Shown here in pieces: positions 7,369-53,204 of a DNA stretch of 64,000 bases. The notes under the pieces were generated by a model. It worked only from the letters and a program-made list of their open reading frames with translations. It searched no databases and was not told where the DNA came from. The position numbers and the translations under genes were made by a program. Positions within the stretch are counted from its first letter, which is position 1. Every line of letters starts with the position of its first letter. Source of the DNA: an uncultured Gammaproteobacteria bacterium (lineage in GTDB: Bacteria > Patescibacteriota > Patescibacteriia > UBA11705 > DATKZF01); contig CAYPKD010000005.1 of NCBI GenBank assembly GCA_964411255.1, positions 5,547 through 69,546 of the forward strand. The letters run 5' to 3'.

Positions 7369-7374
7369 TTTTCG

Positions 7375-7414
7375 TCAAAAGGTAAAAACGAATTCGAATT
7401 CGTTTTTACCTTTT
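7375..7414 (-). terminator. bidirectional terminator, perfect 40-nt palindrome
   Basis: caaaaggtaaaaacgaattcgaattcgtttttaccttttg lies at the 3' end of the minus-strand methyltransferase gene. Confidence 0.6.
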
Positions 7415-8554
7415 GACGGCTATTTTCCAAATTGTAATTCTTCGAACCAAATGTTGTCCTGGCCTTGAATAATCAAATTCATTGAGTAAATTATAGCCAA
7501 GCTGTTTTATATTTTCATCAATTGACGTATCGATTATTTGTTTTTTAGATTTTAATTTTGGAAAGATAAATACCACTATATGTTTAGATCCAAGCAATTT
7601 ACTAAATTTTTCAAAGGATTTTAAATATAAAAGCTGAAGTTCTTTTTTTATTTTATTTAAGTCTGCCTGATTTTCTTTACCAGTTAAGGGTTTGCCTAAA
7701 TATGGTTCAGTGACAATTGCTTGAGGTAAAAATTTTAAATCTTTTGCAGTTGCTTTGGTTATGTCTAGCGTTTTCATTTCAATATTTACAGTTAAATTAA
7801 AATTTTCAAGCAGCCAATCAATATTTTTTTGAGCTTTTAGAATAGTTGAAGCATTTATATCACTACCAAAGATGTTTTCATATCCTAATATTGCTGCTTG
7901 CTGCAAAATAGTGCCAAAACCGCAAAATGGATCCCAAATAGTTTTTGTTTTTTGTGGAATTAGATTAATCATCATTTGCGCCACTTTAGGCGGCAGCATA
8001 CCTATCTTGGGATCAAATTCTGGACGGCCATAGTCAAGCTTGTTCCAGAGCTCAAAGTCCTGAACGGCTAAGGTTTTACCAATTAAAAAAATTCCGCGTT
8101 GTTCAAAAATACAAAGCTCAATTCCCTGATCAATCAGCTTATTTTTTTTAACAACGACTGCGGTTAGGTTTTGCGTTTTCGGACTCACAAATCTACATGG
8201 CCGGCTTTGTTTAATAATTTTTTTTATTTCAATGCCCAGTTTGTTTATTTTAAGTTTTTGATTTGTATAGTCGCTTATTCCAAACTGGATCTTGTTTGTT
8301 TGTTTTAAATCAATCGTTTTGATGAGCTCGTTGGCATTGAGTCTCTGAATTTGGCCGATGATTTCACCGAATTTTATTTGACCGCCGAGTCTGTAAAAGA
8401 TTTTGTTATCTATTTTTTCTTTCGATTCAATAATAAAAAGCTCGTTTTGCTGCAAAATTTGCTTAAATTCAATTTTTGTTAAAAACAAAACGTTTTTTAT
8501 CTCAGCTAAAGATAATTGGGGTGTTTTTCCAAAAATAAAATAATATTTATGCAT
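7406..8554 (-). CDS. putative RNA (guanine-N2)-methyltransferase, UPF0020/Trm11-RlmL-like
   Basis: DPFCGFGT SAM-binding motif; the ORF extends to 8704 but the likely start is the downstream Met MHKYYFIFG at 8554. Confidence 0.6.
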   Translation of the reverse strand: MHKYYFIFGKTPQLSLAEIKNVLFLTKIEFKQILQQNELFIIESKEKIDNKIFYRLGGQIKFGEIIGQIQRLNANELIKTIDLKQTNKIQFGISDYTNQKLKINKLGIEIKKIIKQSRPCRFVSPKTQNLTAVVVKKNKLIDQGIELCIFEQRGIFLIGKTLAVQDFELWNKLDYGRPEFDPKIGMLPPKVAQMMINLIPQKTKTIWDPFCGFGTILQQAAILGYENIFGSDINASTILKAQKNIDWLLENFNLTVNIEMKTLDITKATAKDLKFLPQAIVTEPYLGKPLTGKENQADLNKIKKELQLLYLKSFEKFSKLLGSKHIVVFIFPKLKSKKQIIDTSIDENIKQLGYNLLNEFDYSRPGQHLVRRITIWKIAVKR

Positions 8555-8806
8555 ATATTTTATTGTATCATTTTTTTGATATTTTGATACTTTTATACAT
8601 ACAAATAAAAGTCTGCGCCTATGCCATTTTACAGCAGAATGTTGAGGAGAGAGAGATTTGGTTTTGAATACGTTGTTACGTACCCTAGCCAAAAACATTC
8701 GCACTGTTATAAATTGGCAAAAAGACGCAGACTTTTACAACCAATGTATTTATTATTGTAGCATATTTTTAAATTTTGTAAATACTTAAAAGTTAAATAC
8801 AGCAAA

Positions 8807-16630: not shown

Positions 16631-19036
16631 ATGAAGAAATATAATCACCAAAAATTAGAAAAAAAGTGGCAAGAGTATTGGGAAGAAAAAGAAATATACA
16701 AAGCTTTGGATTTTGATCAAACAGATAAGCCTAAATATTACAGTTTAATAGAATTCCCTTATCCATCTGGGGAAGGTCTTCATGTTGGCCATCCGCGAAG
16801 CTACACCGCCTTAGATGTTATTGCCAGAAAGAAAAGGATGCAAGGGTATAATGTTTTATTCCCAATTGGCTGGGATGCTTTTGGTTTACCCACGGAAAAT
16901 TATGCAATAAAAACCGGTATTCATCCAAAATTAGCTACTGCTCAAAATGTTAAAAGATTTACAAAGCAATTAAAGAGCCTGGGATTGAGTTTTGACTGGT
17001 CAAGGGAAATAAATACTACTGATCCTGAATATTATAAATGGACGCAATGGATATTTTTAAAATTGTATGAAAATGGTTTAGCATATAAAAAGAAAATGCC
17101 AATTAATTGGTGTCCTTCATGCAAAATTGGTTTAGCCAATGAAGAAGTGGTCAGTGGAGTTTGTGAGCGCTGCGGTCATGACGCAGAAAAAAGAGATATG
17201 AAACAATGGCTTTTAAAGATAACTGCATATGCAGATCGTTTGATTGAGGATTTGGAAACCGTTGATTATTCTGAGAATATTAAAACAGCGCAAATAAATT
17301 GGATTGGCCGGAGCGAAGGAGCTGATGTTGATTTTGAAATAAAAGGAACAGATAAAAAACTTAGTGTTTTTACCACCAGACCTGATACTTTATTTGGCGC
17401 AACGTACATGGCAATTGCTCCTGAACATGAATGGGTTGAAGAAATCACCACAAAAGACAATAAAGAAGCTGTTTTTAATTATCAAAAGCAGGCCAGGCAA
17501 AAATCAGATTTAGAAAGAACTGATTTGGCAAAAGAAAAGACCGGAGTGTTTACTGGCGCGTATGCAATTAATCCGGTCAATGGCCAGGAAATTCCAATTT
17601 GGGTTGCTGATTATGTTTTGTCAACTTATGGCAGTGGAGCAATTATGGCGGTACCAGCGCATGATGAGCGTGATTATGAATTTGCCAAAAAATATGATTT
17701 GCCAATTATTGAAGTTATTAAAGGCGGAGACATCGCAAAAGAAGCTTACACCGAAGATGGTGAGTTAATAAATTCAGAAATGCTTAATGGTTTAAATGTT
17801 AGTGATGCCATAAGTAAAATAAATAAATGGCTGGAGGAAAAAGAATTTGGTAAAGCAACTATTAATTATAAGCTTCGCGACTGGATTTTTTCCCGGCAAC
17901 ATTATTGGGGTGAGCCAATACCAATTGTTTTTTGTAAAAAATGCGGTACAGTACCTGTCCCATATGAAGAATTGCCACTGGAGTTGCCAAAAGTTGAAAA
18001 TTATAAGCCAACTGAAACGGGTGAATCACCTTTAGCAAATATTAAAAAGTGGGTTAATACAAAATGTCCAAAATGTAAGGGATCTGCAAAGAGAGAAACA
18101 GACACAATGCCAAACTGGGCTGGCAGTTCATGGTATTTCTTGCGATATTGCGATCCAAAGAACAGTGAAGAATTTGCAAATTCTGAGAAACTAAAATATT
18201 GGTTTCCAATAGATTTATACAATGGCGGAATGGAACACACAACATTGCATTTATTGTATTCCAGATTTTGGCATAAATTTTTATTTGATATAGATTTAGT
18301 GCCAACTTCAGAGCCTTACATGCAGCGGAGATCTCATGGCTTGATTATCGGAGAGGATGGACAGAAAATGTCAAAGTCTAGAGGTAATGTTATTAATCCG
18401 GACGATATTGTTAAGGAGCACGGAGCAGATGTTTTGAGAACATATGAGATGTTTATCGGTCCATATGATCAGTCTATCGCATGGTCAACAAACGGTATAA
18501 ATGGAATTCGGAGGTTTATTGATAGGATTTATAATTTTAAGGGTTTTAAAAATAATGGAACTAAGGATTCTGAGGAAGTTGAGATATTATTGCAAAAGAC
18601 AATAAAAAAAGTAACAGATGATATAGATAAAATGCATTTTAATACAGCTATTAGCGCTTTAATGATTTTATTGAACAAATTTGAAGAAGAAAAGATTATT
18701 TCAAAAGATACTTGGAAAATATTTTTAATAATGTTTTCTGTGTTCGCGCCACATATAACGGAAGAGCTTTGGCAGGCTCTGGGTGAAAAGACCAGCATAT
18801 GCCTAAAACCATGGCCCAAGTATGATGAGGGTAAAATTAAAGAAGAAAAAATTAAATTAGTAGTACAGGTTGATGGTAAGGTACGGGCAAATATCGAGGT
18901 AGAAAGCGGAATAATTGAAGACGAAGCAAAACAAATAGCATTGAAAGATGAAAAATTAAAAAAATCTATTGGGGATAAGGAAATTAAAAAAATTGTGTTT
19001 GTGAAGGATAAGCTGATTAATTTTGTGATAAAGTAA
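16631..19036 (+). CDS. leuS: leucine--tRNA ligase
   Basis: HVGHPRSY (HIGH) and KMSKS motifs; CP1 editing-domain region. Confidence 0.95.
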   Translation: MKKYNHQKLEKKWQEYWEEKEIYKALDFDQTDKPKYYSLIEFPYPSGEGLHVGHPRSYTALDVIARKKRMQGYNVLFPIGWDAFGLPTENYAIKTGIHPKLATAQNVKRFTKQLKSLGLSFDWSREINTTDPEYYKWTQWIFLKLYENGLAYKKKMPINWCPSCKIGLANEEVVSGVCERCGHDAEKRDMKQWLLKITAYADRLIEDLETVDYSENIKTAQINWIGRSEGADVDFEIKGTDKKLSVFTTRPDTLFGATYMAIAPEHEWVEEITTKDNKEAVFNYQKQARQKSDLERTDLAKEKTGVFTGAYAINPVNGQEIPIWVADYVLSTYGSGAIMAVPAHDERDYEFAKKYDLPIIEVIKGGDIAKEAYTEDGELINSEMLNGLNVSDAISKINKWLEEKEFGKATINYKLRDWIFSRQHYWGEPIPIVFCKKCGTVPVPYEELPLELPKVENYKPTETGESPLANIKKWVNTKCPKCKGSAKRETDTMPNWAGSSWYFLRYCDPKNSEEFANSEKLKYWFPIDLYNGGMEHTTLHLLYSRFWHKFLFDIDLVPTSEPYMQRRSHGLIIGEDGQKMSKSRGNVINPDDIVKEHGADVLRTYEMFIGPYDQSIAWSTNGINGIRRFIDRIYNFKGFKNNGTKDSEEVEILLQKTIKKVTDDIDKMHFNTAISALMILLNKFEEEKIISKDTWKIFLIMFSVFAPHITEELWQALGEKTSICLKPWPKYDEGKIKEEKIKLVVQVDGKVRANIEVESGIIEDEAKQIALKDEKLKKSIGDKEIKKIVFVKDKLINFVIK

Positions 19037-19166
19037 AACCAGCATTTCTGCTGTACGCCTGCCAGTTTCGTGGTCAGCGGCAGAGATGCCGCTTGATTCA
19101 GTGCAGGCGCTTACAAGCACCATTTCTGGTGCTACCCAAAATGACAGCAGAAATGCTGGTTTTTTG
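19037..19166 (+). other. GC-rich multi-stem structured element closed by an 18-bp stem plus U tract (complex terminator or ncRNA)
   Basis: aaccagcatttctgctgt ... acagcagaaatgctggtt then tttttt; inner hairpins cgcctgc/gcaggcg, gcggca-gaga-tgccgc, agcacca-tttc-tggtgct. Confidence 0.5.
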
Positions 19167-21464: not shown

Positions 21465-23537
21465 TTAATCTTCTACTTGCTGAGTAATTACGCCCTTTTC
21501 TTTTCCTTCTTCATCAAATTCTAAATTTGTAGAAATCGGATTTAAGGATATTATCAATGAATCACCGGTAATTGAGTCTTTTGCTTCTAAGCTGGTGTTT
21601 TCAGTTAGCTTCATTAGTTTGCCAATGTCATCGTTAGTTGGTTCCAGACTGAGCTCAAAGTTTGTATGAGCTTCATTTACTGACTGAGGAAGCCTGTTAA
21701 TTTCCCAGGTTATTTGATTTGTATCAGAATTATAATTAATTTGCCCAGTCGTTATTTGTTCATTTCCTGACCAGCTTACTTTATCAGCCAGAGTAGCTTT
21801 TATTTTTACATCTGTTATTTCATGCAGATTATTTGAAATATCCCAGAAAATTTTATAGGTTGTCTTTTCATTTGCTTGCGGTGGAAGAGGACCAGAGCCG
21901 ATTTCATTCCCATCCTGATCATAATATAATGCTTTTATACCTAAAGCAATGTCTGTATTTAATTTGATTTCAATTGTCGAACTGTCAATTGTCGGCTCTT
22001 CTTCATTAATGGTTAATTGCAAATATAATTTTATGTTTTGCTCAGCTAAGCTTTCGTTTGAAAAGTCCTGCAAGGCAGCCAGTTTTTTTATTGGAATTGA
22101 AAATTCAATAACATTTTCTGAATAGGCATTTAAATTGCTTATATTCCAGCTTATTTGAGAGCCTTCTTCTGTATCCTCCAAATCACCGCCGCTCAGATCA
22201 CTGTTTTTCCAATCTAACACCTCTAACGGCCATTCAGTAATATTGGCAATTAGCCCGGCATCTTCAACATCCTGATCGCTTGTGTTTTTTATCACTGCAG
22301 TACAATTTATATTTTCACCATAGCTGGTATTACTATTTTCAGTTTTTCCATTTATTATTAAGTAAGCCAAAAGTTCTTGATCAGAAAGCTCTATAGTAAA
22401 TTGTTCTGATTTTTGGACAAAATTTTGGTCAAATTCTCCAGGATATAAAATTTGGAATTCAAATGGCTGATTTTTTTCAATTGTCGCTAAGTCAATGTCT
22501 TCGGAAAATATGCCTTCAACAGTTATTTCCTGTTCATTATTATCTGCTTTAATATTTTCAATTACCCATTCATTATTTTCAGATTTTGGCTGGCTTTGAA
22601 TAATTGAAAAATCAGCAGGAGATACTAATTTGATGATTAATTTTTCATAATCGATTTCTGTCGGGTTGCTATATGATAATGTCAAATTGAATTTTTGTCC
22701 TGGTATGGCATTTTGAGGATTAGTAATCAGTGCTTCAAGCTCAAGCGGCAAAACCTGGGTTGAATGCGTCTCTATTTTACTGAACTCAGAATTAAAATTT
22801 TCCGGGTTATAGGAAATAGTGGCATTAATTTTTTGAGTTGTGTCAACCTGTGTTATTAATTTACCTTTTATTTTTATTTGTCCAGATTCATTGATTTTAA
22901 TTTTATCAAAATTCCAGGTGCTATTTTCTGTTTCCGGAACTTGTTCAGTTAAGGAAAATCCTTTTGGCATTCTTACAAATAATTTAACATCTTTTAACGC
23001 CACCTGACCTTCATTTTCATAATTTATCAGATATGTGACCTCCTCGCCAATTTGGGTCTCGTCAGGTCCGATTATGCTAATTTTAATTTTATCCTCAGCA
23101 AACTGTTTTCTTTTATTAAAAACAATAAATCCAAATATACTGGCAGCAGCGATAATAAAAAGAAAAATAAGGGCTGATATTATAATAGTGCGTTTCCTCC
23201 TTTTTTGTCTTTTATCCATGATATGAGCCAGTATAGTTTCTTCTTCTTTCGCCTCTTTTTCAACATCTGAATTTGTCTGAAATAACTCTGCGGCCTGCTT
23301 ATATATAGAAGCAATTGATTCAGTATTTTTTGTTTTCTTTTTAAATAAGCTGAATTTACTTTTTTTCTTTTTTTGGGGTTTGTTTTTCTTCTGCTCTTTC
23401 TTCTTACCAGGTTTTTTCTCAGTTTTTTTATTAGTTATGGTTGTCTCTTTTTTTGAATCAGAATTTTTCTTTTCTTGATCAGAAAGATTTTTTTGTTCTG
23501 TATTTTTTTCTTCTTGGTTTGTGTTTTTATTTGACAT
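21465..23537 (-). CDS. membrane-anchored surface protein with Lys-rich cytoplasmic N-tail
   Basis: poly-K N-terminus, single TM helix, large Asn/Thr/Glu-rich extracellular region. Confidence 0.7.
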   Translation of the reverse strand: MSNKNTNQEEKNTEQKNLSDQEKKNSDSKKETTITNKKTEKKPGKKKEQKKNKPQKKKKSKFSLFKKKTKNTESIASIYKQAAELFQTNSDVEKEAKEEETILAHIMDKRQKRRKRTIIISALIFLFIIAAASIFGFIVFNKRKQFAEDKIKISIIGPDETQIGEEVTYLINYENEGQVALKDVKLFVRMPKGFSLTEQVPETENSTWNFDKIKINESGQIKIKGKLITQVDTTQKINATISYNPENFNSEFSKIETHSTQVLPLELEALITNPQNAIPGQKFNLTLSYSNPTEIDYEKLIIKLVSPADFSIIQSQPKSENNEWVIENIKADNNEQEITVEGIFSEDIDLATIEKNQPFEFQILYPGEFDQNFVQKSEQFTIELSDQELLAYLIINGKTENSNTSYGENINCTAVIKNTSDQDVEDAGLIANITEWPLEVLDWKNSDLSGGDLEDTEEGSQISWNISNLNAYSENVIEFSIPIKKLAALQDFSNESLAEQNIKLYLQLTINEEEPTIDSSTIEIKLNTDIALGIKALYYDQDGNEIGSGPLPPQANEKTTYKIFWDISNNLHEITDVKIKATLADKVSWSGNEQITTGQINYNSDTNQITWEINRLPQSVNEAHTNFELSLEPTNDDIGKLMKLTENTSLEAKDSITGDSLIISLNPISTNLEFDEEGKEKGVITQQVED

Positions 23538-26070
23538 AATCTTTTAGTTCAAAAATTAATCCGATTAATTCATCAGTATTTAATACTGTTTGCCCCACAG
23601 CTTTATTTCTATCTTTAATTTTTGCATCTTCAGGATAGAGCCATTTTATTTTATAATTATCAGGCAGAATAATGTTTGTTTTCAAGTCAATATTTTGCAT
23701 TCCTGGCTGTTTTTGAATAAACAGAGAATAAAATTGTGAGGAATTATTATTGTCAAAAACTGAATCAATTAATTTTTCTAACCATGAATTATCTTCTGGC
23801 AAGCTCAATCGAAAAGGCAAGGCATATGAGAGTTCTATTGTGCTTTTTTCATTTATTGGTGTTTGTATCCAATTGGCAAAAACCGTTTTACCTGATTCAG
23901 TATAAATTTCTGTTTTTGAAAGAGGATGAACTGAAACTGGAGTGATTATTTTTGACAGGGTTTGATCAGGCATTGCATTATTTAAAGGTTGATAAAAATT
24001 TGCTTCCTTCATGCTAGAAAAACCAGTAGCCTTTATTAGCTGGCTGCCCTGTGGAACAAATATTTTTAAATATGAGGTATTGGTCATGTTTTCAAAAATA
24101 TCATCAGGATCGCCTTTGTGTTCTCTTTCTATTCGCAAATTATTTATAATAGTACCGTTTTCATCGATATTGGTTGTTAATTCAACTTTTTGATGCATCA
24201 CATGGCTGGTTTTTCCACCCATCATGTTTATATCAACAATTGCCAGATAATCTTTTGATGTTTGCTTGACCTCGCCAGCCCAATTATATTCAACCACCAT
24301 TTTTTGCAGTTCTGGGTCATTTAAATACATTAATATTTCTTTTTTGCTAAAGCTGGTATTTAAGGTTTTTAGGATATTCGTTAAAGTAGCATCCTTGGCA
24401 GAGAAAATTGATTCAAGAATTTGAGGCGTAATATCAGCAATGAACTGTTTTGGCTTATTTTCTTCCCGGTCATATTCCAATTCCACAGATTTTTGGGTTT
24501 CTTCAATAAAATTTTCTGCTGTAATAATTTTTCCATATTGAGCTGCTTCAATTGGCGGTATATGATCAAGCAGTTGCTCTATTAGGCTGGCATTTATTGC
24601 TATTATGCCATCAACAGTTGCACCGCCGGCTTTTTGAAAAAACCATTCTATTTTCTGGGCTGAAGTAGGGAAGTCAAAAAACCAGTTTGAATCCTGCATT
24701 TCCCATTTATTATTCACTAATAGCAAAGGCTGCGGCGGAATTAAGCTTTCATACAAAGTTCCCTGAAAATCATAAGTACCGCCGCCAGGAATTTCAATAT
24801 TTTTTATTTCTCCTTTGTAAAAATCAACTAAAGCGACACTGCCCATAAAACCGCCGGTTGGCCGAAGCTCCCGGTTGTTTTGGAAAATTATCAGATATCT
24901 TTTTTTCTTTTTATGACCCAATACTTCCATCATAAATTTAGTAAATGAATCCAGCGTGTGAAAATCAGAATTAAATTGATGGATTTGCGACTTGACCTGA
25001 ACGAATTGATCTGCAAATTCCTCTGGAATGGCATTGGGGCTTATTAGATTTATTTTTTCAGTTGATTGATCGACTAAAGGAAGCGCTTCCTGTATTTGTA
25101 TTTGAATGTATGAAATTTTGTCAGTAATTTTTGAATTATCATTATAAAAATAATTTAGGCTTTCACTGAATATTTGCCCTAAAAGTGAAATGTTTTCTCC
25201 GACTTCAAGCAAATTTTGGGCATCAGATAAAGTTTTTCCTTCATATGGAACTATTTTTAGTATTGGTTGAAGTAAACTGCTGATTTCATCCAGCTGATTT
25301 TTTGCATTGTCAAAATTTCTTTCTGCTTTATTAAAATGTTTTTGTGCTGATGAAGGATTTTTTTCTGAAATTGCAGAGCTGGCAATTTTTAAGTCGCTAT
25401 ATGCGTCTTTTGTCAAATCAAGGACCTTGTCTTTTGTTTGATTTAATTTATAAAAGTGGCTGAAAGCATGAATCGGCCCAGCTAATAGAAGACAAACAAT
25501 TATAAAAACCGTTAATGCCCTGGCCCAGCCAACGGGTAAGACAAAAAGTCTTGGTTTAGTATATTGGCATTTAATTTCTTCATCAGATAATTTTATTTTT
25601 TTAAAATATGTTTCATTAAATTCTGAATTTAAACTGTCTGATCCTTCATCTACAATCTCAGCCTTTTGGGAAAGATCGAGCAGGTGAGGTGATATTTTTG
25701 GTTTGGCCTTTTTATATGAGGATTTGTTGGCAGTGTTTTTATTTAATAAAAAAGCAATATCTGCTTCATCTGAAGCATTGCTTTTTAAAATATTATCTAA
25801 TTTATTTTTCGACTTAACACCTTTTTTTCTTTTTGGAACAGCTTTTACTTTCTTTCTGGCTTTTTTTGTTATTGAACTCTTTTTTTTAACAAATTTTTTC
25901 TTTGTCGTTTTGTTTTTTGATTTTGGTTTTGCTTTTTTTATAATTTTTTTCTTTGCAGCAACTCTAACAGCCTTCTTAGCTTTTTTGTTAGAAGTTTTTT
26001 TCCTCACCACCTTTTTTTTAATGGTTTTCTTTTTTGCAGGTTTTTTGATTTTTGTTTTCTTTATTGCCAT
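23527..26070 (-). CDS. membrane-anchored envelope protein, DUF4012-like, with poly-Lys N-tail
   Basis: ~180-aa KKK-rich N-terminus, one TM helix, IIFQNNRELRPTGGFMGS motif recalled as characteristic of DUF4012. Confidence 0.65.
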   Translation of the reverse strand: MAIKKTKIKKPAKKKTIKKKVVRKKTSNKKAKKAVRVAAKKKIIKKAKPKSKNKTTKKKFVKKKSSITKKARKKVKAVPKRKKGVKSKNKLDNILKSNASDEADIAFLLNKNTANKSSYKKAKPKISPHLLDLSQKAEIVDEGSDSLNSEFNETYFKKIKLSDEEIKCQYTKPRLFVLPVGWARALTVFIIVCLLLAGPIHAFSHFYKLNQTKDKVLDLTKDAYSDLKIASSAISEKNPSSAQKHFNKAERNFDNAKNQLDEISSLLQPILKIVPYEGKTLSDAQNLLEVGENISLLGQIFSESLNYFYNDNSKITDKISYIQIQIQEALPLVDQSTEKINLISPNAIPEEFADQFVQVKSQIHQFNSDFHTLDSFTKFMMEVLGHKKKKRYLIIFQNNRELRPTGGFMGSVALVDFYKGEIKNIEIPGGGTYDFQGTLYESLIPPQPLLLVNNKWEMQDSNWFFDFPTSAQKIEWFFQKAGGATVDGIIAINASLIEQLLDHIPPIEAAQYGKIITAENFIEETQKSVELEYDREENKPKQFIADITPQILESIFSAKDATLTNILKTLNTSFSKKEILMYLNDPELQKMVVEYNWAGEVKQTSKDYLAIVDINMMGGKTSHVMHQKVELTTNIDENGTIINNLRIEREHKGDPDDIFENMTNTSYLKIFVPQGSQLIKATGFSSMKEANFYQPLNNAMPDQTLSKIITPVSVHPLSKTEIYTESGKTVFANWIQTPINEKSTIELSYALPFRLSLPEDNSWLEKLIDSVFDNNNSSQFYSLFIQKQPGMQNIDLKTNIILPDNYKIKWLYPEDAKIKDRNKAVGQTVLNTDELIGLIFELKDYVK

Positions 26071-38151: not shown

Positions 38152-38762
38152 GATCCAAACAGGTCTATAAGCCGAATTCTGTCCCACCAGAGGCGGGGAT
38201 GATCATCTATCTAGTCCCGAGATTACTCTCGGGATCAAGCGAGCTACCAAACTTGCTCTTGCACCAGATAAGGTTTACCACCACCTAATGTTACCATTAG
38301 GCAAGAGAAGTATAAATTAAATAGTCACGTGAACCATTTAACTTTTTTCCTTCTCACTTTTCACCTTTCACCACTGCTACGCAGTGGAATTTCTAAATCC
38401 TAATTTTTTAAACTCTGAACAATTTTCAAATTTTCGAAAGGTTTTAAACATTAGAACATTTGAATTTCGAATTTGTTTAGAATTTCGTATTTCGAATTTA
38501 GCGCTTCCATTGCGCAACAATGGCTAGTATAGTCTCTGTGGCACTGGCTGTCGTCTAGGTTTATTAATTATCCTAGAATCGCCTGGGAGTTACCCAGTAT
38601 CATACCGCAGATTACGCTGATTAGCCGATTACGCAGATTGCAGGACTTTTTTTTATCAGCGTAATCAGCGTAATCTACGGTCAGGTGTTCGGACTTTCCT
38701 CCGGCCTACGCTTTTCACTTTGTTCAAAGCTTCGGCTGGCGATCATCCAACCTATTTGGATC
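38152..38762 (-). ncRNA. rnpB: RNase P RNA (bacterial type A) with large AT-rich insertions, ~610 nt
   Basis: minus-strand reads GGAGGAAAGUCCGAACACC (P4 5' strand), ACAGAAUUCGGCUUAUAG (P4 3' strand, compensatory GUCCGAA/UUCGGCU), CCAGUGCCACAGAGA, GGUGAAAGGUGAAAAGUGAGAAGG; 12-bp P1 GAUCCAAAUAGG/CCUGUUUGGAUC. Confidence 0.85.
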
Positions 38763-42198: not shown

Positions 42199-42206
42199 AT
42201 ATTTTT

Positions 42207-42244
42207 AGATTGGTAGATCGGTAGATTTGTAGATTGGTAGTTAG
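42207..42244 (+). repeat. left inverted-repeat arm: 4 NNNGGTAG octamers
   Basis: attggtag atcggtag atttgtag attggtag; inverted partner at 42675-42709. Confidence 0.5.
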
Positions 42245-42246
42245 AA

Positions 42247-42629
42247 TTATTTATTATTTAATTCTTTAGTTTTTGAATTTGTCATTTTATTCAACATTCG
42301 CATGACTTCATTTAATAAATTATCAACTTTTAAAAAATTTAATTTTTTTCCAAATGGTAGACGATTGGCAATTTCTATTTGAGTTTCTAATTCTGCCCCG
42401 GAAGCATATGCTACTATTAAAAAGTGACGATATTCTTTTATTGTTAGTCGTTTTTTTCCTTCAGCGATATTCGAGGGGATAGATATAGCTGTTTTTCGTG
42501 TATGTTGAATTAATCCAAATGATTCAATTTTCGGATATTATTCTGTTAATTCATAGACCGCGACAACTAAATCCATTGCTTTTTGCCAAACAATTAATTT
42601 CCGGTAATCCCCAGGTTGATTAATTTCAT
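42247..42629 (-). pseudogene. four-helix-bundle protein gene (23S rRNA intervening-sequence type), decayed
   Basis: minus strand encodes LIVWQKAMDLVVAVYELTE*YPKIESFGLIQHTRKTAISIPSNIAEGKKRLTIKEYRHFLIVAYASGAELETQIEIANRL...; one in-frame TAA and an N-terminal frameshift relative to the ATG at 42629. Confidence 0.7.
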
Positions 42630-42674
42630 TTTAAAATAATTTCCCATGTACTTTTATCCTATCATTTAAATCTC

Positions 42675-42709
42675 TACTGATCTACCAATCTACCGCCCTA
42701 CCGAACTAA
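42675..42709 (+). repeat. right inverted-repeat arm: 4 CTACCNNN octamers
   Basis: ctactgat ctaccaat ctaccgcc ctaccgaa is the reverse complement of the 42207-42244 array type. Confidence 0.5.
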
Positions 42710-46629: not shown

Positions 46630-46769
46630 AAGTTTTTTGTAAGAAACGTCAAATGATATTTACATTATAATTGATAAGGACATATTTGTCAATCCCTGTG
46701 TTGTTAGAAAATTTTTTTGTACTCAGTTTCATTTTTCTATGCAGTAAAAAAATGCTATAATATAAATCA

Positions 46770-47465
46770 ATGAAAGAAGCTAATAAATTGTATAAAAACT
46801 GGTGGTTTAAGCCAACAATAGTTATTATTGGCATTCTTTTGATTATAATAATGATAAACGTAAAAGTCAATAGGCCATTTGAGGATTTTATAAAAAAAAT
46901 AAAACAGGCAGCAGTGCCAATTGAAAGCACTTATAATATGGATGAGATACGAACTGACAATGATCCGTATTTGGGGATTAAAGAAGCACCTGTTCAGATT
47001 GTGGAATTCGGAGATTTTAATTGTCCGTATTGCAAGGCTTCTGTATCAATAATGAGAGAAGTACTGCTAGAGTATGAAGATGAAGTTTTTTATCAGTTCA
47101 GAGATTTTCCAGTAGTATCTGAACAATCAATATTTTTGGCAATGGCAGGCAGCTGCGCTCATGAGCAAAATAAATTTTGGGCATTACATGATTTGCTCTT
47201 TCAAAGACAGGGAGAAATTAATGAACTCAATATTAATCAGTATGCGCAAAGCGTGGGCTTGAACACCAATCAGTTTAGTGAATGTATAAGTAGTGAAAAA
47301 TTTAAAAATGAAGCAATGGAAGATTTTTTAGCTGGAGATAAATTGCAGGTCAAGGGCACGCCAACATTTTTCGTTAATGGGAACAAATTCCAGGGCGTAC
47401 CAACAAAGGAAAATTTAAAAAGAATAATTGATCAGCTTATTTTAATAGAAGAAAAAAAACAATAG
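46770..47465 (+). CDS. DsbA-like thiol:disulfide oxidoreductase (membrane-anchored)
   Basis: N-terminal TM helix; CPYC active site. Confidence 0.75.
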   Translation: MKEANKLYKNWWFKPTIVIIGILLIIIMINVKVNRPFEDFIKKIKQAAVPIESTYNMDEIRTDNDPYLGIKEAPVQIVEFGDFNCPYCKASVSIMREVLLEYEDEVFYQFRDFPVVSEQSIFLAMAGSCAHEQNKFWALHDLLFQRQGEINELNINQYAQSVGLNTNQFSECISSEKFKNEAMEDFLAGDKLQVKGTPTFFVNGNKFQGVPTKENLKRIIDQLILIEEKKQ

Positions 47466-47472
47466 TTTATAT

Positions 47473-48024
47473 ATGAAAGAAATAAGAATACATGGGCGAG
47501 GTGGTCAAGGCACAGTTACTGCAGCTGAACTTTTAGCAATGGCAATTTTTTTTGATGGCAAATATTCTCAAGCTTTTCCAAACTTTGGAGTAGAAAGAAG
47601 GGGTGCGCCTGTAGAATCATATGTTAGAATTGGCAAAAAGCCAATCAGGCTGCGTTCCCAGATTTATAAGCCAGACTTTTTAATCATTATGGATTTAAGT
47701 TTATTAGATTTGCAGCAGGTTTTAGCAGGTACAAATAAGGATACGATTGCGCTGGTTAATAGCGAGGTAAAACGAAAATTAAAGGGAATGAAATCGTATC
47801 ATATACCTGCCACTTCTGTTGCCCTAGAAGCGATTGGCAGTCCATTGCTTATCAATACGGCATTAATGGCAGCCTTTATTACAATAACTAAATTGGTTGA
47901 TTTTGATTCATTGATAAAGGCAGTACAAGAAAGATTTTTATATAAGGGAGAAGAAGTAGTTAAAAAAAATATTATTGCAATGAAAGTGGCGAAAAAATTT
48001 ATGGAAGAAGAATACAGCTTGTAA
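47473..48024 (+). CDS. porG: pyruvate:ferredoxin oxidoreductase gamma subunit
   Basis: MKEIRIHGRGGQGTVTAAELLA N-terminus typical of PorG. Confidence 0.85.
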   Translation: MKEIRIHGRGGQGTVTAAELLAMAIFFDGKYSQAFPNFGVERRGAPVESYVRIGKKPIRLRSQIYKPDFLIIMDLSLLDLQQVLAGTNKDTIALVNSEVKRKLKGMKSYHIPATSVALEAIGSPLLINTALMAAFITITKLVDFDSLIKAVQERFLYKGEEVVKKNIIAMKVAKKFMEEEYSL

Positions 48025-48034
48025 TAACAAAATT

Positions 48035-48313
48035 ATGAAAAAACCATTACATACCAAATCAGGTACAACCAAAGATAATAAAACAGGTTCATGGCGGACA
48101 TATGTGCCAGTTGTTGATCATGATAAATGCATTGCCTGCGGAATTTGCGCTCGCGTATGCCCTGAAGGATGTGTTTTTCCGGTGGGAGAAAGAGTGTTAC
48201 AGAAAAATGCTAAAATTTTTTATGAACATGACTTGGATTATTGCAAGGGCTGCGGAGTTTGCGTTGAAGAATGCCCGGTTAAGTGTATAAAAATGGTTAG
48301 AGAGGAAAAGTAA
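48035..48313 (+). CDS. porD: pyruvate:ferredoxin oxidoreductase delta subunit (2x[4Fe-4S] ferredoxin)
   Basis: CIACGICARVCP and CKGCGVCVEECP clusters. Confidence 0.85.
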   Translation: MKKPLHTKSGTTKDNKTGSWRTYVPVVDHDKCIACGICARVCPEGCVFPVGERVLQKNAKIFYEHDLDYCKGCGVCVEECPVKCIKMVREEK

Positions 48314-48414
48314 TTTAAATTTGAGAATAGTTATTTAGAAATCAGTATTAGAAATAAGATAATAAAAATAGTTTTTAAATACTAATTTCAAATTTCCATT
48401 TTCCATTACCAATT

Positions 48415-49539
48415 TTGATTTTCTATAAACTAATTTCTATGAGAAAAAACATTGAGGGATCAGAAGCAATAGCTGAGGTGGTTAAATTAATACAACCAGA
48501 AGTGGTAGCCACTTTTCCAATTACACCTCAGACTCATATAATAGAACATCTGGCTAAATATAAAGCAGATGGTGAGGTTGGTTTTGAATATATAAAAACT
48601 GAAAGTGAGTTTGCAGCAGCCTCAGTTGTTTTGGGTGCCAGCGCGATGGGGGTACGGGTATACACCGCTTCCAGCTCACAAGGATTGCTTTTAATGGGCG
48701 AGGTTTTATATGACATTGCTGGCATGAGATTGCCCGTGGTTATAACTGCAGCTAATAGGGCGATTTCCGCGCCATTAAATATTTGGAATGACCATCAGGA
48801 TGTAATGCCTTTTCGTGATGCTGGCTGGATAATGCTTTTTGCTGAGACTAATCAGGAGGCGATGGATCTGCATCTTTTGGCTTTCAAGTTGGCTGAAAAA
48901 TTATCGCTCCCAGCAATGGTTTGCATGGATGGTTTTGTCTTAACCCACACTTATGAGCCGGTTGACATTCCAAAGTTAAGCGAAGTTAAAAAGTTTTTAC
49001 CTAAATACAGGCCAAAGAAAAATACATATTTAGATGTGATTAATCCGGTTAGCCTGGGTTGTTTTGCCACCCCAGCTGATTATCAGGAAATAAGACTGGA
49101 ATTACATGAGGATTTATTAAAATCAAAAAATCTATTCATTCAGGAAGCAAAGAAATTTAAAAAGATTTTTAAACGGAATTTAAATATTATTGATTATTAC
49201 GGCCCAAAAAATGCAAAAACTGTAATTGTCGCGATGGGAGCAGCTTTAGGCACCATTAAAGAAGCTGCAGATCAGTTAAATGAAAAAGGATCAAAGGTGG
49301 GAGTATTAAAAATATCAATGCTGCGGCCTTTTCCAAAAATGGAAATAAAACATTTATTAAAAGATAAAAAAAACGTGATTGTTCTGGATCGGGCAATATC
49401 ACTGGGTTCTGGTGGTATATTATATAATGAGGTTAGAAATGCTTTATGCAATACCAATGCCAAGGTTAGCGGAGCAGTAAACGGCTTGGGTGGAAGGGAT
49501 ATTACAATTGATTTTATTAAAAAACTTATTGTAGCGTGA
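48415..49539 (+). CDS. porA: pyruvate:ferredoxin oxidoreductase alpha subunit
   Basis: PorA-like sequence; likely start is the Met at 48439 (MRKNIEGSEAIAE). Confidence 0.85.
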   Translation: MIFYKLISMRKNIEGSEAIAEVVKLIQPEVVATFPITPQTHIIEHLAKYKADGEVGFEYIKTESEFAAASVVLGASAMGVRVYTASSSQGLLLMGEVLYDIAGMRLPVVITAANRAISAPLNIWNDHQDVMPFRDAGWIMLFAETNQEAMDLHLLAFKLAEKLSLPAMVCMDGFVLTHTYEPVDIPKLSEVKKFLPKYRPKKNTYLDVINPVSLGCFATPADYQEIRLELHEDLLKSKNLFIQEAKKFKKIFKRNLNIIDYYGPKNAKTVIVAMGAALGTIKEAADQLNEKGSKVGVLKISMLRPFPKMEIKHLLKDKKNVIVLDRAISLGSGGILYNEVRNALCNTNAKVSGAVNGLGGRDITIDFIKKLIVA

Positions 49540-49557
49540 TAATTTTGAGAATTGGAG

Positions 49558-49632
49558 GTTACGGAATTACGGAAGGTTACTGATATTACGGATATCCGTA
49601 GTATCCGTAATAATCAGTAAATCCGTAATCCC
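49558..49632 (+). repeat. palindromic array of TTACGGA (x3-4) then TCCGTAA (x3) heptamers
   Basis: ggttacggaattacggaaggttac..attacggatatccgtagtatccgtaa..aatccgtaatcc between porA and the inserted gene. Confidence 0.5.
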
Positions 49633-49640
49633 TAATAAAT

Positions 49641-52118
49641 ATGAAAAAAATAATATTACTTACAATTCTTCTGGCATTAATTTGCACGTCTTTTTTAGTT
49701 GCTGCCAAGGTTAGTGCGTTTGAGCCTTTGGAAGAATTAATTCCAAGAATGAAAATCCCGATCCCGCAGCTTGAACCATTTCAAAAGCCTACTTATGTGG
49801 AAGAAGGAGGCAAGGGCTATATTTTCATTCCATGGATAGCCCAATATGTAAGTGCAATGTATAAATATGCTTTGGCTATTGGATCAATCATTGCTGTGAT
49901 TGCAGTTATGGTAGGAGGAATTTTATATTTAACCTCTGGCGGTGCGCCTGGCAGAATAGATCAGGGTAAAAATATTATTATTGGTGCTATTACCGGACTT
50001 TTAATTATAATTTTTTCTTATATCTTTTTAAATACAATTAATCCTGAACTGGTGAATCTTAAGGCTATTAGAATTCAAGCTGTAAAACAAGAAGCATTAG
50101 TGGTTGGAAATAATTGTAAGGATTTGGGAGCTGGATTTATAGTCAGAACTCCAAGCGGAGAAAAAGAAGGAACAACAGGTAATGCCCAGTATTTTGCATG
50201 CGGCAGTTCATATCCAGTAAGGTCAGGGGCAGCAGATGTGATTGTTCCCGAAGGTCAGAATTGCGATGGGGCGTATTGCCAAAAGGGTGCTTGCGAGACT
50301 GTTGATGGTAAACCACAGTGTGTGAATGCTTTGTTTACAGGAGAAATTACAGGAACGATGTTGTCCGGAGGAAGATATATTGATGAAGAATTTGAGCTTT
50401 GGGGCATGCCGGGAAATGGTCTTCTCGCAGCATTTCCAGTTCCATCTAAAGGACGATATGTTATTCCTTTAACAGCTGAATTAGAAAACAAACTAAATCT
50501 TGTAGACAAAGTGTATTTTCATCTACAGATAAATACCACAGGTGCTTATCCTTATTGGGCCTATAAAATTGGAAAGGAAGGAGTTGTTGATGTGGATTTG
50601 ATAAAAGAAACGGTAAAAAGTTATTTTAAAACTACAATAGATAGTGAATTTTATGCAGTAAAAAGTTATAAGGATCCAGAAAAAGCAATATGGGGATTCC
50701 CATACTCTCTAGATCAGATGTCCCCACTCAATCCTAGTTATGGTAATACCCCTTGTGATCCATGTTTTGTGATGCCTAGGAACGCTGAATGGCGATTTGA
50801 ACAGAGATTGCCTTGGTGTCAATTTTGGGAACCGACTGATCTTTTAGTAGCAGCAAAAAGTGGATCTGGAACAGTTGTAAATTTTAATATTGATGATTTT
50901 CCAGAATATCCTCAGTGGCCTCCACCGGTTCTAGTAAAAGAACTTCTATTAGATAATATTTCTGGATTACCTACGCCTGAATTTTTAAAGGGTGTTAAAT
51001 ACGAAGATATAGATTGGAATAATTTGGCTACAATCAATCCAGATTTATATCCTTATATGACTGATCCTGCTGAATTTTGTGTGGCTTCGAGTCAGTTAAC
51101 ATCTGCCTCTCCATTTCCTGGGACTCCATGTACTAGTCCGTTTGAGACAGCATTTGTTGCAGCTGATGATGCGAATGCGCCAGATGATTTAAAGGGGAAA
51201 ACATTATATTGTCGGCCTGCTGGTTATCAAGTCGGTTCAGGCACAGCAGTAGCAAAGTTTGAATGGACATTGGAAGATGCTAGGAAAGGAGATACGTGTG
51301 ATAATTTAAGTGTTGCTCAGAGTTTTCCAGGACAATTTTCAGCTGGACAAACAGCAAAAAACGATGGACAGCCATTTGTTAATTGTGAATCTGGCGTTAG
51401 TTGCCAATGGGTTAGCGGTGATGTAGGAGAATGTATAAATGGTTTAACATATTGTTTTGGGTTTTGTGAAGATGATGAAGCAGTATTGTCTATGGGAATT
51501 GGAGATCCATGCAGAGATGGCACCTGCCTTCCATATAAAGGATCAATAGAATTAAAATGCGTTTTAAATGGAAATGCCAGGGAATGTTTATTAGGCACAT
51601 GGGGATCATTTTGCAATACTGATAACGACTGTAAAGACGGTTTTGAATGTATTAAGCATGACACTACAACTACTGATGAAGTTCAATTTTGTGCAAAAAA
51701 GAATGCAGGAAGATGGCAGGCATGTGGAGATAAAATTAGCGGTAGTGGTACGAATTGTTCTTCTGGATTGGATTGTGAGCAAGTAGAATACGGAGAAGAA
51801 GGTGATAGTGACGCACAGTGTGATACAGGCCATTGGTCTGGAGCAGATACTAATAATTTGAAATTTTGTCTTGAAAGTACTTATGATGATAATAATCATG
51901 GGATCTGCTCCTGTTCAAATAATAGTAATTGTGCCAATACTTATGGTTGGGATTCTGGTGCAAATTATTGTAATTTAGCAGGTTATGAATATTGTTCTCA
52001 AAAAGTTGAAGGCGCATGGTGTAAAGTAGAGGGAAAAACAACACCAGACAATTATTTTTGCCATGGTGTAGGAGGTGAGTATGGAGTTTTACATCAAAAG
52101 ATTTCAACTAGTCAATAA
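49641..52118 (+). CDS. 825-aa Cys-rich secreted/surface protein with VirB2/TrbC-pilin-like N-terminal region
   Basis: signal peptide, then two hydrophobic helices separated by a short Gly-containing loop, then a >600-aa extracellular region with >50 Cys. Confidence 0.75.
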   Translation: MKKIILLTILLALICTSFLVAAKVSAFEPLEELIPRMKIPIPQLEPFQKPTYVEEGGKGYIFIPWIAQYVSAMYKYALAIGSIIAVIAVMVGGILYLTSGGAPGRIDQGKNIIIGAITGLLIIIFSYIFLNTINPELVNLKAIRIQAVKQEALVVGNNCKDLGAGFIVRTPSGEKEGTTGNAQYFACGSSYPVRSGAADVIVPEGQNCDGAYCQKGACETVDGKPQCVNALFTGEITGTMLSGGRYIDEEFELWGMPGNGLLAAFPVPSKGRYVIPLTAELENKLNLVDKVYFHLQINTTGAYPYWAYKIGKEGVVDVDLIKETVKSYFKTTIDSEFYAVKSYKDPEKAIWGFPYSLDQMSPLNPSYGNTPCDPCFVMPRNAEWRFEQRLPWCQFWEPTDLLVAAKSGSGTVVNFNIDDFPEYPQWPPPVLVKELLLDNISGLPTPEFLKGVKYEDIDWNNLATINPDLYPYMTDPAEFCVASSQLTSASPFPGTPCTSPFETAFVAADDANAPDDLKGKTLYCRPAGYQVGSGTAVAKFEWTLEDARKGDTCDNLSVAQSFPGQFSAGQTAKNDGQPFVNCESGVSCQWVSGDVGECINGLTYCFGFCEDDEAVLSMGIGDPCRDGTCLPYKGSIELKCVLNGNARECLLGTWGSFCNTDNDCKDGFECIKHDTTTTDEVQFCAKKNAGRWQACGDKISGSGTNCSSGLDCEQVEYGEEGDSDAQCDTGHWSGADTNNLKFCLESTYDDNNHGICSCSNNSNCANTYGWDSGANYCNLAGYEYCSQKVEGAWCKVEGKTTPDNYFCHGVGGEYGVLHQKISTSQ

Positions 52119-52124
52119 ATTTCT

Positions 52125-53039
52125 ATGCCAATAAAAAATAAATACCACACACCATATCAGCATTTAATAAATCCAGGACACACAGCCTGCTCTGGGTGTG
52201 GTTTGATTGTGGCAATGATTAATATTTTAGATGCGCTAGGTCCGAACACGATTGTTGCCAATGCCACTGGCTGCAGCGAGGTGACGACCAGCAAATATCC
52301 TCAGACTGCTTTTAAGGTGCCGTGGATCCATTCTATTTTTGAAAATACAGTGGCAGTGGCTGCAGGTATTGAAGCTGTGCTCAGAAAACAAGGAAAGGAC
52401 GATAATATAAATGTATTAGCCTGGGGCGGAGATGGCGCTATGTTTGATATTGGCCTTGGGTTTATGTCAGCCTCCTGGGAAAGAGAAGAAAATATTTTAA
52501 CAGTTTGTCTGGACAATGAAGCTTATATGAATACTGGAATTCAATCTAGCAGTGCCACACCAATAGATGCATATACCATGACCACTCCATCTGGAAGGAA
52601 ATCATGCGGTAAAAAATTAACTAAAAAAGATATGATAAAAGTGGCATTGGCTCATGATGTTCCCTATGTGGCTACAGCAACAATTGGAGATTTAGTTGAT
52701 TTATCTAATAAAATTAAAAAAGCATCCAAGGTTAAGGGGCCGAAGTACATTCAGGTTTTGACTACTTGTATTCCCGGCTGGAATGTTGAATCACATCTGA
52801 CAATTAAATTAGCCAGGCTTGCTCAGCAGACTGGCATTTATCCGGTTTTAGAATATGAGAAGGGCAAATTGATTTCTGCTAAAAAAGTAACAAAGGACAG
52901 GCCAAAAGTTGAAGAATATTTGAAACCGCAGGGAAGGTATAAACATTTGTTTAGCAAAAGCGGCAAGTGCAGAGGAGGAGTTGATATTATTCAAAAGCTG
53001 GCTGATGAGAATATTGAGAAATTCGGACTTCTCAAATAA
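52125..53039 (+). CDS. porB: pyruvate:ferredoxin oxidoreductase beta subunit (TPP-binding)
   Basis: GGDGAMFDIG TPP motif; Cys cluster near N-terminus. Confidence 0.85.
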   Translation: MPIKNKYHTPYQHLINPGHTACSGCGLIVAMINILDALGPNTIVANATGCSEVTTSKYPQTAFKVPWIHSIFENTVAVAAGIEAVLRKQGKDDNINVLAWGGDGAMFDIGLGFMSASWEREENILTVCLDNEAYMNTGIQSSSATPIDAYTMTTPSGRKSCGKKLTKKDMIKVALAHDVPYVATATIGDLVDLSNKIKKASKVKGPKYIQVLTTCIPGWNVESHLTIKLARLAQQTGIYPVLEYEKGKLISAKKVTKDRPKVEEYLKPQGRYKHLFSKSGKCRGGVDIIQKLADENIEKFGLLK

Positions 53040-53204
53040 CAAATCATTTTTTTGGTGGTCGTTGGTTGTTAGGCATGGCAGCCAGTATGATTTTTTGTTG
53101 TTAGTCATTAGACTTTCTAACCAATGACCTAGGCCCATAGACCAAACTGGCAGTCAAGACTTAAAACTAATTACCTAAAATAAATTTTTTTAAATTTACT
53201 AATT

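Follow-up and report, generated by a model that had tools for sequence, protein, structure and literature searches.

An 825-residue cysteine-rich protein with a pilin-type hairpin domain encoded between porA and porB in a conserved por locus

How does a gene for a large cysteine-rich protein come to stand among the subunit genes of a core metabolic enzyme, and what might its product do there? This question is raised by a 64-kb stretch of contig CAYPKD010000005.1 (35% GC; hereafter, the window), in which six co-directional genes on the + strand (46770–53039) follow one another in the order dsbA-like, porG, porD, porA, X and porB. The four por genes encode the subunits of a putative pyruvate:ferredoxin oxidoreductase (PFOR), and X is an open reading frame (ORF) of 825 aa with an ATG start (49641–52118, + strand). 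This ORF had been singled out, with its position between porA and porB and its strand given correctly, in a preliminary reading made without database searches (hereafter, the sequence-only reading), which described a pilin-like or adhesin-like gene interrupting a por operon and left the dsbA gene at the head of the operon unmentioned. On balance, and with some reserve, we favour the view that X is a surface protein that would be folded by DsbA, anchored by its hairpin, co-transcribed with PFOR as a passenger and engaged in contact with a partner cell. This view builds on the ORF itself, its pilin-type domain and the topology features predicted for it, on its conserved gene context, on a contrast in evolutionary rates and on the linkage with DsbA.

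Position of X in the por locus

The gene order was compared with that of 76 bacterial and archaeal loci of other genomes that carry both porA and porB. The porA–porB gap was 434 nt or less in 74 of the 76 loci, and one gap of 868 nt proved to be an artefact of a truncated alignment, so that the subunit genes were contiguous in 75 of the 76, as the sequence-only reading had supposed for por genes in general. The sole comparison locus with an insertion was that of contig L005, a syntenic relative of the window. In the window, porA and porB stand 2.6 kb apart, with X in the interval. The porA–X–porB order is, accordingly, unusual among por operons.

The X family is known from six lineages, each with X between porA and porB: that of the window; its sister lineage (protein P0002, contigs L001–L003), with PorA 92% and PorB 97% identical to those of the window; the lineages represented by P0005 (L093), P0006 (L094–L096) and P0007 (L097–L098); and a sixth lineage (L005), which was found via porB (PorB 59% identical) and which has an X homologue, X′, of 810 aa in a porA–porB gap of 2.5 kb. 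Since six lineages share the position of X, at PorB identities from 97% down to 59%, X within por is, as judged from these loci, an old and stable trait of the clade and not a recent interruption. What stands of the interruption described in the sequence-only reading is thus that it is unusual among por loci; the event itself is not recent, having been conserved in all six lineages.

The surroundings of the locus, with genes for RNase J, SBP, SecG, DsbA, Por, UvrA, a response regulator and L19, were common to the window, L094 and L005. The dsbA gene was joined to por in this clade only (in 0 of the other 75 loci), and it took the same operon position in L005 and L094. Compared with canonical porGDAB operons of the archaeal and anaerobe type, the locus has the same four subunits in the canonical order, the same strong purifying selection and PorA and PorB as best NCBIfam models, but it differs in the unrelated 2.5-kb gene that parts porA from porB and in dsbA at the 5′ end, neither of which was present in the approximately 75 other por loci. 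The best GTDB-representative match of the clade's por outside the clade was about 53% identical. Literature searches on interrupted por operons, and on DsbA together with pilins in Patescibacteria, found nothing relevant.

Domain structure, divergence and the link with DsbA

A hydrophobicity scan of X detected three hydrophobic segments, at residues 1–28, ~70–103 and ~109–138, which bears out the signal peptide and two hydrophobic helices of the sequence-only reading. The signal peptide, predicted from hydrophobicity and from the sequence at residues 1–26 (49641–49718, +), shows by eye a KK n-region, an h-region, a V-S-A motif and an A-x-A type site at residues 24–26, with predicted cleavage between AKVSA and FEP, and it was kept in the orthologs. 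The two helices that follow form the membrane hairpin of Pfam family PF18895 (T4SS_pilin; T4SS, type IV secretion system), assigned by hidden Markov model (HMM) to residues 63–145 (49827–50075, +). Scanned alone against PF18895, residues 58–148 scored 31.2 bits (E 2.3e-7; profile positions 7–70 of 71), against a gathering score of 26.6 bits. The hairpin spans an IPWIAQY motif to INPELVNL, with the short loop TSGGAPGRIDQGKN between the helices. Every ortholog of X matched PF18895 (17.5 to 30.9 bits), as did all eight aligned relatives of the domain (best E 3.1e-9), and the ortholog P0006 carries the NCBI name 'pilin'. In contrast, X had no match to PF04956 (TrbC/VirB2) at E ≤ 0.1; among the related domains, one of eight matched this family at E 0.088, and P0003 gave E 0.013 with 16.1 bits vs a cut-off of 27.9. 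The likeness to VirB2/TrbC pilins that had been proposed is therefore retained through PF18895, with the domain taken alone, and not through PF04956.

These profile matches indicate that the N-terminal hydrophobic pair of X is a PF18895 domain, beyond a generic anchor. The sequence-only reading had allowed for a generic anchor free of pilin homology, which the PF18895 match contradicts, and for a conserved lineage trait of known function; the trait is indeed conserved, and is without known function. In a low-confidence AlphaFold2 (AF2) model, the hairpin helices span residues 64–98 and 103–133. Foldseek superposed the hairpin on the conjugative pilin of Aeropyrum pernix (8dfu) with prob 0.92, TMt 0.70 and rmsd 1.8 Å at an E-value of 2.2, which is not significant, and a search of the PDB by sequence with the hairpin profile yielded no relative; the modelled fold appears consistent with a VirB2-like pilin, short of proof. 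Because the signal peptide would be cleaved, giving an out-in-out topology, the 680-residue C-terminal part of X is expected to lie outside the cell. The PF04956 TrbC/VirB2 and F-type TraA pilins are alike in having a signal peptide, two transmembrane helices, a predicted out-in-out topology and a short basic loop. Unlike these pilins, X lacks the PF04956 match and carries a 680-aa extension that would bar C-terminal processing or cyclisation unless the ectodomain were cut first.

The C-terminal part, residues 146–825 (50076–52118, +), is an acidic ectodomain (91 D+E vs 48 K+R) without a known domain, extracytoplasmic by prediction. The count of more than 50 cysteines in the sequence-only reading has to be lowered for X to 39, of which 38 lie past residue 150; a count of 54 was found in the distant ortholog of L005. 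Most of the ectodomain cysteines were conserved, 36 of the 38 in at least five of the six orthologs and 27 in all six. A phmmer search with residues 151–825 against 1.84 billion representatives returned five true clusters (P0001, which is that of the window, P0002, P0005, P0006 and P0007) and two weak matches. One weak match, P0008, which contains five SdrD_B/SpaA repeats, aligned with X residues 178–244 (whole-library E 3.2e-5), and the top Foldseek matches of the full X model were to transthyretin (E 0.4, not significant). In Pfam, no match to SdrD_B, SpaA or Cna_B was obtained on residues 196–316 of five orthologs, where the pLDDT of the model was 52–71. These results give a weak hint of a prealbumin-like, adhesin-stalk-like beta-sandwich at about residues 200–300, and the model gives a similarly weak hint of small disulfide-rich beta-hairpin modules at about residues 600–720. 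The AF2 pLDDT was 43 for full-length X, modelled from a 5-sequence alignment, and 55 for residues 575–825. A profile search of a 5.8-billion-protein collection with a 6-sequence alignment brought back only four already known proteins and missed P0005–P0007, and neither half of X had a paralog among all six-frame ORFs of the window.

Evolutionary rates were estimated between the window and the sister lineage (L001/L003) by the Nei–Gojobori method. Synonymous divergence (dS) was 1.21 at the 3′ end of porA, 1.03 at the 5′ end of porB, about 0.75 in X residues 1–140 and 1.51 in X residues 216–825, and nonsynonymous divergence (dN) was 0.036, 0.015, about 0.03–0.04 and 0.655, respectively. Since dS is of the same order in por and X, X diverged in place and was not swapped by recombination. 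The dN/dS ratio was 0.015–0.03 for por (about 0.015 for porB), about 0.04 for the hairpin and about 0.43 for the ectodomain: amino-acid change in the ectodomain was ~20–40 times faster than in por, and the hairpin was as constrained as Por. The ectodomain is, by these estimates, under relaxed or diversifying constraint. A kept cysteine scaffold with a fast-changing surface is a pattern typical of extracellular proteins that meet a changing partner.

The cysteines of X have a counterpart at the other end of porGDA, which is bracketed by dsbA and X. The dsbA-like gene (46770–47465, +; PF13462 Thioredoxin_4, E 9e-31; PF01323 DSBA, E 9e-20) is the first gene of the putative operon, and its translation contains a CPYC active site and an N-terminal transmembrane anchor; its product is a putative membrane-anchored, extracytoplasmic thiol:disulfide oxidoreductase. 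An ectodomain with 38 cysteines makes sense when dsbA heads the same operon. Using the X alignment in a metagenome scan, we found eight loci with related PF18895 domains, six of which have a DsbA homolog directly upstream on the same strand (L085/86, L088, L089, L090 and L091). In both L088 (4483–9914) and L089 (19–5207), DsbA is followed by two PF18895 proteins and then RadA, and in L091 (2195–9282) DsbA is followed by Cys-rich proteins in an array, of which three carry an X-like hairpin. The GC content of the unrelated contigs with this DsbA–PF18895 order ranged from 0.35 to 0.66. The domain was found fused to NlpC/P60 (P0003), an SLT-like domain (P0004), Peptidase_M15_4 (L089) and Peptidase_C39_2 (L091). 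From these fusions to hydrolase-type domains and from the recurring DsbA, PF18895 behaves as a modular unit that anchors extracytoplasmic Cys-containing domains or brings them into a pilus, and that is repeatedly accompanied by DsbA. The long fusions resemble X in the IPWxAQY...INPxL hairpin, in their large Cys-containing extracytoplasmic parts and in the dsbA gene immediately upstream on the same strand. They differ from X in that they contain recognizable cell-wall hydrolase domains, often have an N-terminal Cys-rich part before the hairpin and occur in arrays beside radA, whereas X has its hairpin near the N-terminus, an ectodomain of no assignable family, and a place by itself within por. 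A survey of T4SSs in the candidate phyla radiation (CPR) makes no mention of DsbA, thioredoxin or disulfides, and names fusion proteins only for VirB3–VirB4.

VirB2-like PF18895 pilins have been found in 1,948 CPR assemblies, often as variable arrays of 2–11 genes (10.1101/2025.01.22.634366), and a PF18895 pilin array is essential for epibiotic growth in Ca. Southlakia epibionticum (PMC10633639). In its signal peptide and HMM-fitting two-helix hairpin, its Patescibacteria-like small-genome organism and its high divergence outside the hairpin, X is like these CPR pilins. The pilins, however, measure roughly 100–150 aa and occur in arrays, whereas X, with 825 aa of which 680 follow the hairpin as a Cys-rich ectodomain, is far above the size of a pilus-shaft subunit and is a single gene in a PFOR operon. 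By its profile match X is therefore a member of the known CPR class of PF18895 proteins, from which it departs in size, in the orphan Cys-rich ectodomain, in the lack of T4SS neighbours within 64 kb and in its place in the PFOR operon.

As for the organism, the nearest named homologs of the LeuRS of the window were from a 'Patescibacteria group bacterium' (77%), from the metagenome-assembled genome (MAG) of P0006, named 'Ca. Bipolaricaulota' (75%), and from Patescibacteria and Nealsonbacteria (62–63%); the clade most probably belongs to the small-genome Patescibacteria/CPR. The public labels of two contigs are discordant: L005 (CAZSER010000001.1) is labelled 'uncultured Gammaproteobacteria' and L095 (DATKZF010000003.1) 'Ca. 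Bipolaricaulota', and both are syntenic with the window at 33–35% GC. At least one of these two labels is likely a binning or classification error.

All four PFOR genes of the window were present, intact and co-directional: porG for the gamma subunit (47473–48024, +; PF01558 POR, E 5.7e-39), porD for the delta subunit, a 2x[4Fe-4S] ferredoxin-like protein (48035–48313, +; Fer4 families, E down to 2.6e-14), porA for the alpha subunit (48439–49539, +; POR_N, E 2.8e-70; PFOR_II, E 1.4e-31) and porB for the beta subunit, which binds thiamine pyrophosphate (52125–53039, +; PF02775 TPP_enzyme_C, E 2e-18). The public gene call starts porA at ATG 48439 (366 aa), and the mechanical ORF starts at TTG 48415. 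Because the best NCBIfam models scored under their equivalog cut-offs (PorA_Arch, 463 bits vs 550; PorB PRK11865, 337 bits vs 405), pyruvate is put forward only as the probable substrate.

The intergenic gaps along dsbA–porG–porD–porA–X–porB were 7, 10, 125, 101 and 6 nt. The + strand terminator-pattern scan reported a single site downstream of the operon genes, a stem at 53061–53086 that forms, with its T-run, a terminator-like hairpin 3′ of porB (53061–53096, +; pattern scan only); the other + strand match was a weak 5-pair stem within porD (48092–48109). A single dsbA–porGDA–X–porB transcript is plausible, since the gaps are small, with 6 nt between the stop of X and porB and, in L005, 5 nt between porA and X′, and no terminator-like site precedes 53061; the terminator-like hairpin is the likely end of this transcription unit. 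A perfect TATAAT lies 8 nt 5′ of the dsbA ATG (region 46739–46769), a distance that suggests a dsbA transcript that is leaderless or has a very short leader. No Shine–Dalgarno-like sequence was present at the starts of any of the six operon genes.

Readings of X and their weight

In the reading that we favour, the cleavable signal peptide would route X through Sec, and the conserved PF18895 hairpin would keep it in the membrane or possibly feed it into a T4SS-type pilus. The 680-residue acidic ectodomain would then point outward, held by about 19 disulfides that would be formed by the membrane-anchored DsbA whose gene opens the shared transcription unit. With its cysteine scaffold kept and its surface changing 20–40 times faster than the adjoining enzymes, the ectodomain may be in contact with a changing host or partner surface, or with phage. 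As to its position, X would be a syntenic passenger in a compact co-directional string of genes, or else one half of a DsbA and pilin-fusion module that came to be interspersed among the por genes; a functional partnership with the cytoplasmic PFOR is unlikely.

Several observations weigh against this reading. Full-length X scored 25.1 bits against PF18895, just short of the 26.6-bit cut-off. The ectodomain and its sub-regions matched no family in Pfam or NCBIfam, and a Foldseek search of the PDB with both AF2 models returned nothing at E ≤ 0.001 and no adhesin fold; the adhesin-like label of the sequence-only reading must be dropped, as no adhesin domain was found in either family collection. 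No virB4 or other T4SS gene was detected by Pfam in the 64-kb window, in which the ORFs of at least 530 aa, all of them searched, encode RpoC, FtsH, IF-2, LeuRS, a DUF11 protein, a DUF4012 protein, one protein without a match, RNase J, SBP, UvrA and a poly(A) polymerase-family protein. The omega of the ectodomain is below 1, so that relaxed constraint fits as well as diversifying selection, and the X protein was identical on all nine of the contigs that bear it, without any trace of rapid variation in the population. That X was seen only in por operons could also mean a functional tie with PFOR. The assignment of the clade relies on MAG names that disagree with one another (Patescibacteria group, Ca. 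Bipolaricaulota and Gammaproteobacteria). Finally, the co-transcription of X, its exposure at the surface, its role in contact with a partner and the formation of its disulfides by this particular DsbA are steps that we infer from the features described above.

Among the other explanations, the closest to the favoured one is that X belongs to a T4SS-type pilus as a polymerizing, tip or minor subunit, with the ectodomain displayed as a host-recognition head. PF18895 is, after all, the VirB2-like pilin family of the CPR T4SS, whose pilin arrays are variable and essential; the IPWxAQY and INPxL motifs are common to X and the L091 array pilins, the hairpin superposes on the 8dfu pilin, and a hairpin dN/dS as low as that of a core enzyme suggests more than anchoring. 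However, X is 5–8 times bigger than the known VirB2-type pilins, the superposition, of a shape as generic as a helical hairpin, did not reach significance, and the relatives that join the hairpin to peptidoglycan hydrolases fit a membrane anchor at least equally well. Since T4SS genes are absent from the window, assembly of X into a pilus is also unsupported by its neighbourhood, and we regard a pilus subunit as unlikely. We hold it improbable that X is tied to PFOR by selection, whether through redox or metal handling or through obligatory co-regulation of a nutrient-acquisition surface protein. Such a tie would explain why X lies between porA and porB in six of six lineages, why its ectodomain family occurs nowhere else among the 1.84 billion representatives and why dsbA, a second redox protein, is found on this por operon and on none of the other 75. 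Yet the PFOR subunits are cytoplasmic, without export signals, whereas more than 80% of X would be extracytoplasmic, and the spacing of the ectodomain cysteines differs from CX2CX2CX3C, with no Fer4 match. The position of X needs no special selection, moreover, because the whole neighbourhood of 15–20 kb is syntenic in the clade, and a porA–X spacer of 5, 20, 101, 112 or 133 nt, or one that holds a whole extra gene, argues against tuned coupling.

Very little credence is due to the idea that X arrived recently as foreign or mobile DNA, carried by a conjugative element or a phage. Genes for PF18895 proteins are typical of T4SS and conjugative modules, the 5′ junction of X has a palindromic array, and the por of the clade lacks close GTDB-representative relatives; but the shared position in six lineages, the dS of X, comparable to that of the flanking genes, and its native-like composition (GC 0.379; GC at third codon positions, GC3, 0.22) all speak against a recent arrival. 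No integrase, flanking direct repeat or second copy of X was found in the window, and the palindrome is missing in four of the lineages. We give still less credit to X as the variable target of a diversity-generating retroelement (DGR). Such elements are common in CPR, the ectodomain is highly divergent among lineages, and L094, L095 and L096 have, between porA and X, a 122-aa gene with PF05635/bAvd matches. This 122-aa protein is, however, a generic TIGR02436 protein (124.6 bits) that scored 24.9 bits with the DGR Avd model vs a cut-off of 80, and no reverse transcriptase was present in the window or in the loci of its relatives. A blastn search of X against the window at word size 7 returned only X itself and the hairpin, with no template repeat, and the divergence extends over 600 residues with indels, in a protein that is the same on nine contigs.

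An attached life on other microbes is generally assumed for Patescibacteria, and few of the proteins that make and specify these contacts are known. If X acts as the favoured reading proposes, it would be a concrete candidate for such a contact protein, combining a pilin-domain fusion, a 38-Cys scaffold and a changing surface in a single clade with a DsbA of its own. That DsbA is repeatedly followed by PF18895 genes suggests oxidative folding as an integral part of this surface machinery. The locus also indicates that an unrelated 2.5-kb gene can persist for long evolutionary periods between two subunit genes of a core catabolic operon; function inferred from gene neighbourhood would be misleading in this case, which is a caution for operon-based prediction in streamlined genomes. 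Should X be merely a syntenic passenger, the locus would amount to a well-documented curiosity and not to a new mechanism.

The porA–X spacer and minor features of the window

No part of the locus varies more than the spacer between porA and X. In the window (101 nt), this spacer contains an imperfect palindrome of 86 nt (49551–49636, no strand; detected as an inverted repeat and by RNA folding), which confirms the TTACGGA/TCCGTAA array noticed 5′ of X by the sequence-only reading. Its 45-nt arms are 78% complementary, the left one made of ~8-nt TTACGGA(A) units and the right one of TCCGTAA units. The folding energy of the palindrome as RNA is −39.2 kcal/mol (z = −5.5), a value that was not reached by any of 200 shuffled sequences. 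The spacer of L001 (112 nt) contains a homologous but weaker, decayed hairpin (z −2.8). Those of L093 (20 nt) and L005 (5 nt) are without a hairpin, and that of L097 (133 nt) is unstructured. In L094, as in L095 and L096, the spacer is occupied by the 122-aa gene, which encodes a four-helix bundle and lies in a long closing stem of short tandem units.

Three functions were considered for the palindrome and set aside. As an intrinsic terminator it lacks a U-tract and was not reported by the terminator scan; as a conserved regulatory RNA it is lacking from four lineages of six, and the copy of the sister lineage is decaying; and TTACGGA as a genome-wide operator has only two more copies outside the palindrome in the 64 kb, which is the chance level.

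The L094 element resembles an intervening sequence (IVS) of 23S rRNA. Its four-helix-bundle gene matched TIGR02436 and PF05635 (23S_rRNA_IVP), and the stem-enclosed element spans 7560–8010 (7580–8000). A second IVS-like element was found in the window itself at 42205–42709, in the spacer of a TrpS-like gene and the RNase J gene. It is bounded by a 36-nt inverted repeat (arms 42205–42240 and 42674–42709) with TAGATTGG-type tandem units, the arms of which pair in the RNA fold (z −3.2), and it encloses the remnant of a four-helix-bundle ORF on the minus strand (42606–42274), 61% identical to the L094 gene and with one in-frame TAA. The corresponding site is empty in L094, which suggests that the IVS-like element moves between intergenic spacers. 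The palindrome 5′ of X is probably a solo stem or footprint of such a mobile element and not part of X, which does not need it, given that four of the six lineages are without it; the tie consists of the location and the build from tandem units, as the stem sequences differ and the palindrome contains no ORF. Like the 23S rRNA IVSs of the PF05635/TIGR02436 type, the L094 element has a four-helix-bundle gene in a long stem, and the arms of the palindrome consist of short tandem units; unlike them, the elements described here lie in mRNA intergenic spacers and not in rRNA, and the palindrome at X is without an ORF. IVS stems in rRNA are substrates of RNase III (PMC11270868), and cleavage at the present elements would be predicted by analogy at most.

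Taken jointly, these features could be read more broadly: the PF18895 hairpin would be a general display module for large DsbA-folded, disulfide-knotted heads on a T4SS-type pilus or membrane platform, X would be the fast-evolving determinant of partner or host specificity of its clade, and, as a separate matter, IVS-like stem elements with a four-helix-bundle gene would move among mRNA spacers, besides rRNA, and cut polycistronic transcripts. We see only a small chance that this combination holds as a whole; if true, the place of X in the PFOR operon would couple host contact to the one energy-yielding step reliant on host-derived pyruvate.

Further features of the window lie apart from the por locus. 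Just 3′ of leuS, a GC-rich element of ~130 nt (19035–19163, +) has a perfect 20-bp closing stem with two inner hairpins and is followed by a U-run; it folds at −69.5 kcal/mol (z = −8.6), had no Rfam match even at E ≤ 1, and could be a new small RNA or an elaborate terminator. The RNase P RNA (38152–38758, −) is of bacterial class A (139.6 bits) and, at 607 nt vs 367 for the model, contains large insertions, for one of which a 20-nt inverted repeat with 95% complementarity (38604–38623 and 38662–38681) is a candidate. Two large adjacent genes at 21465–26070 (−) encode further probable surface proteins, one of 690 aa with DUF11 repeats and the other a DUF4012 protein of 847 aa. Lastly, a perfect palindrome of 46 nt (7373–7418), with 23-nt arms that are 100% complementary and no loop, overlaps the end of a minus-strand ORF (7406–8704) and lies just 3′ of an ORF that ends at 7327.

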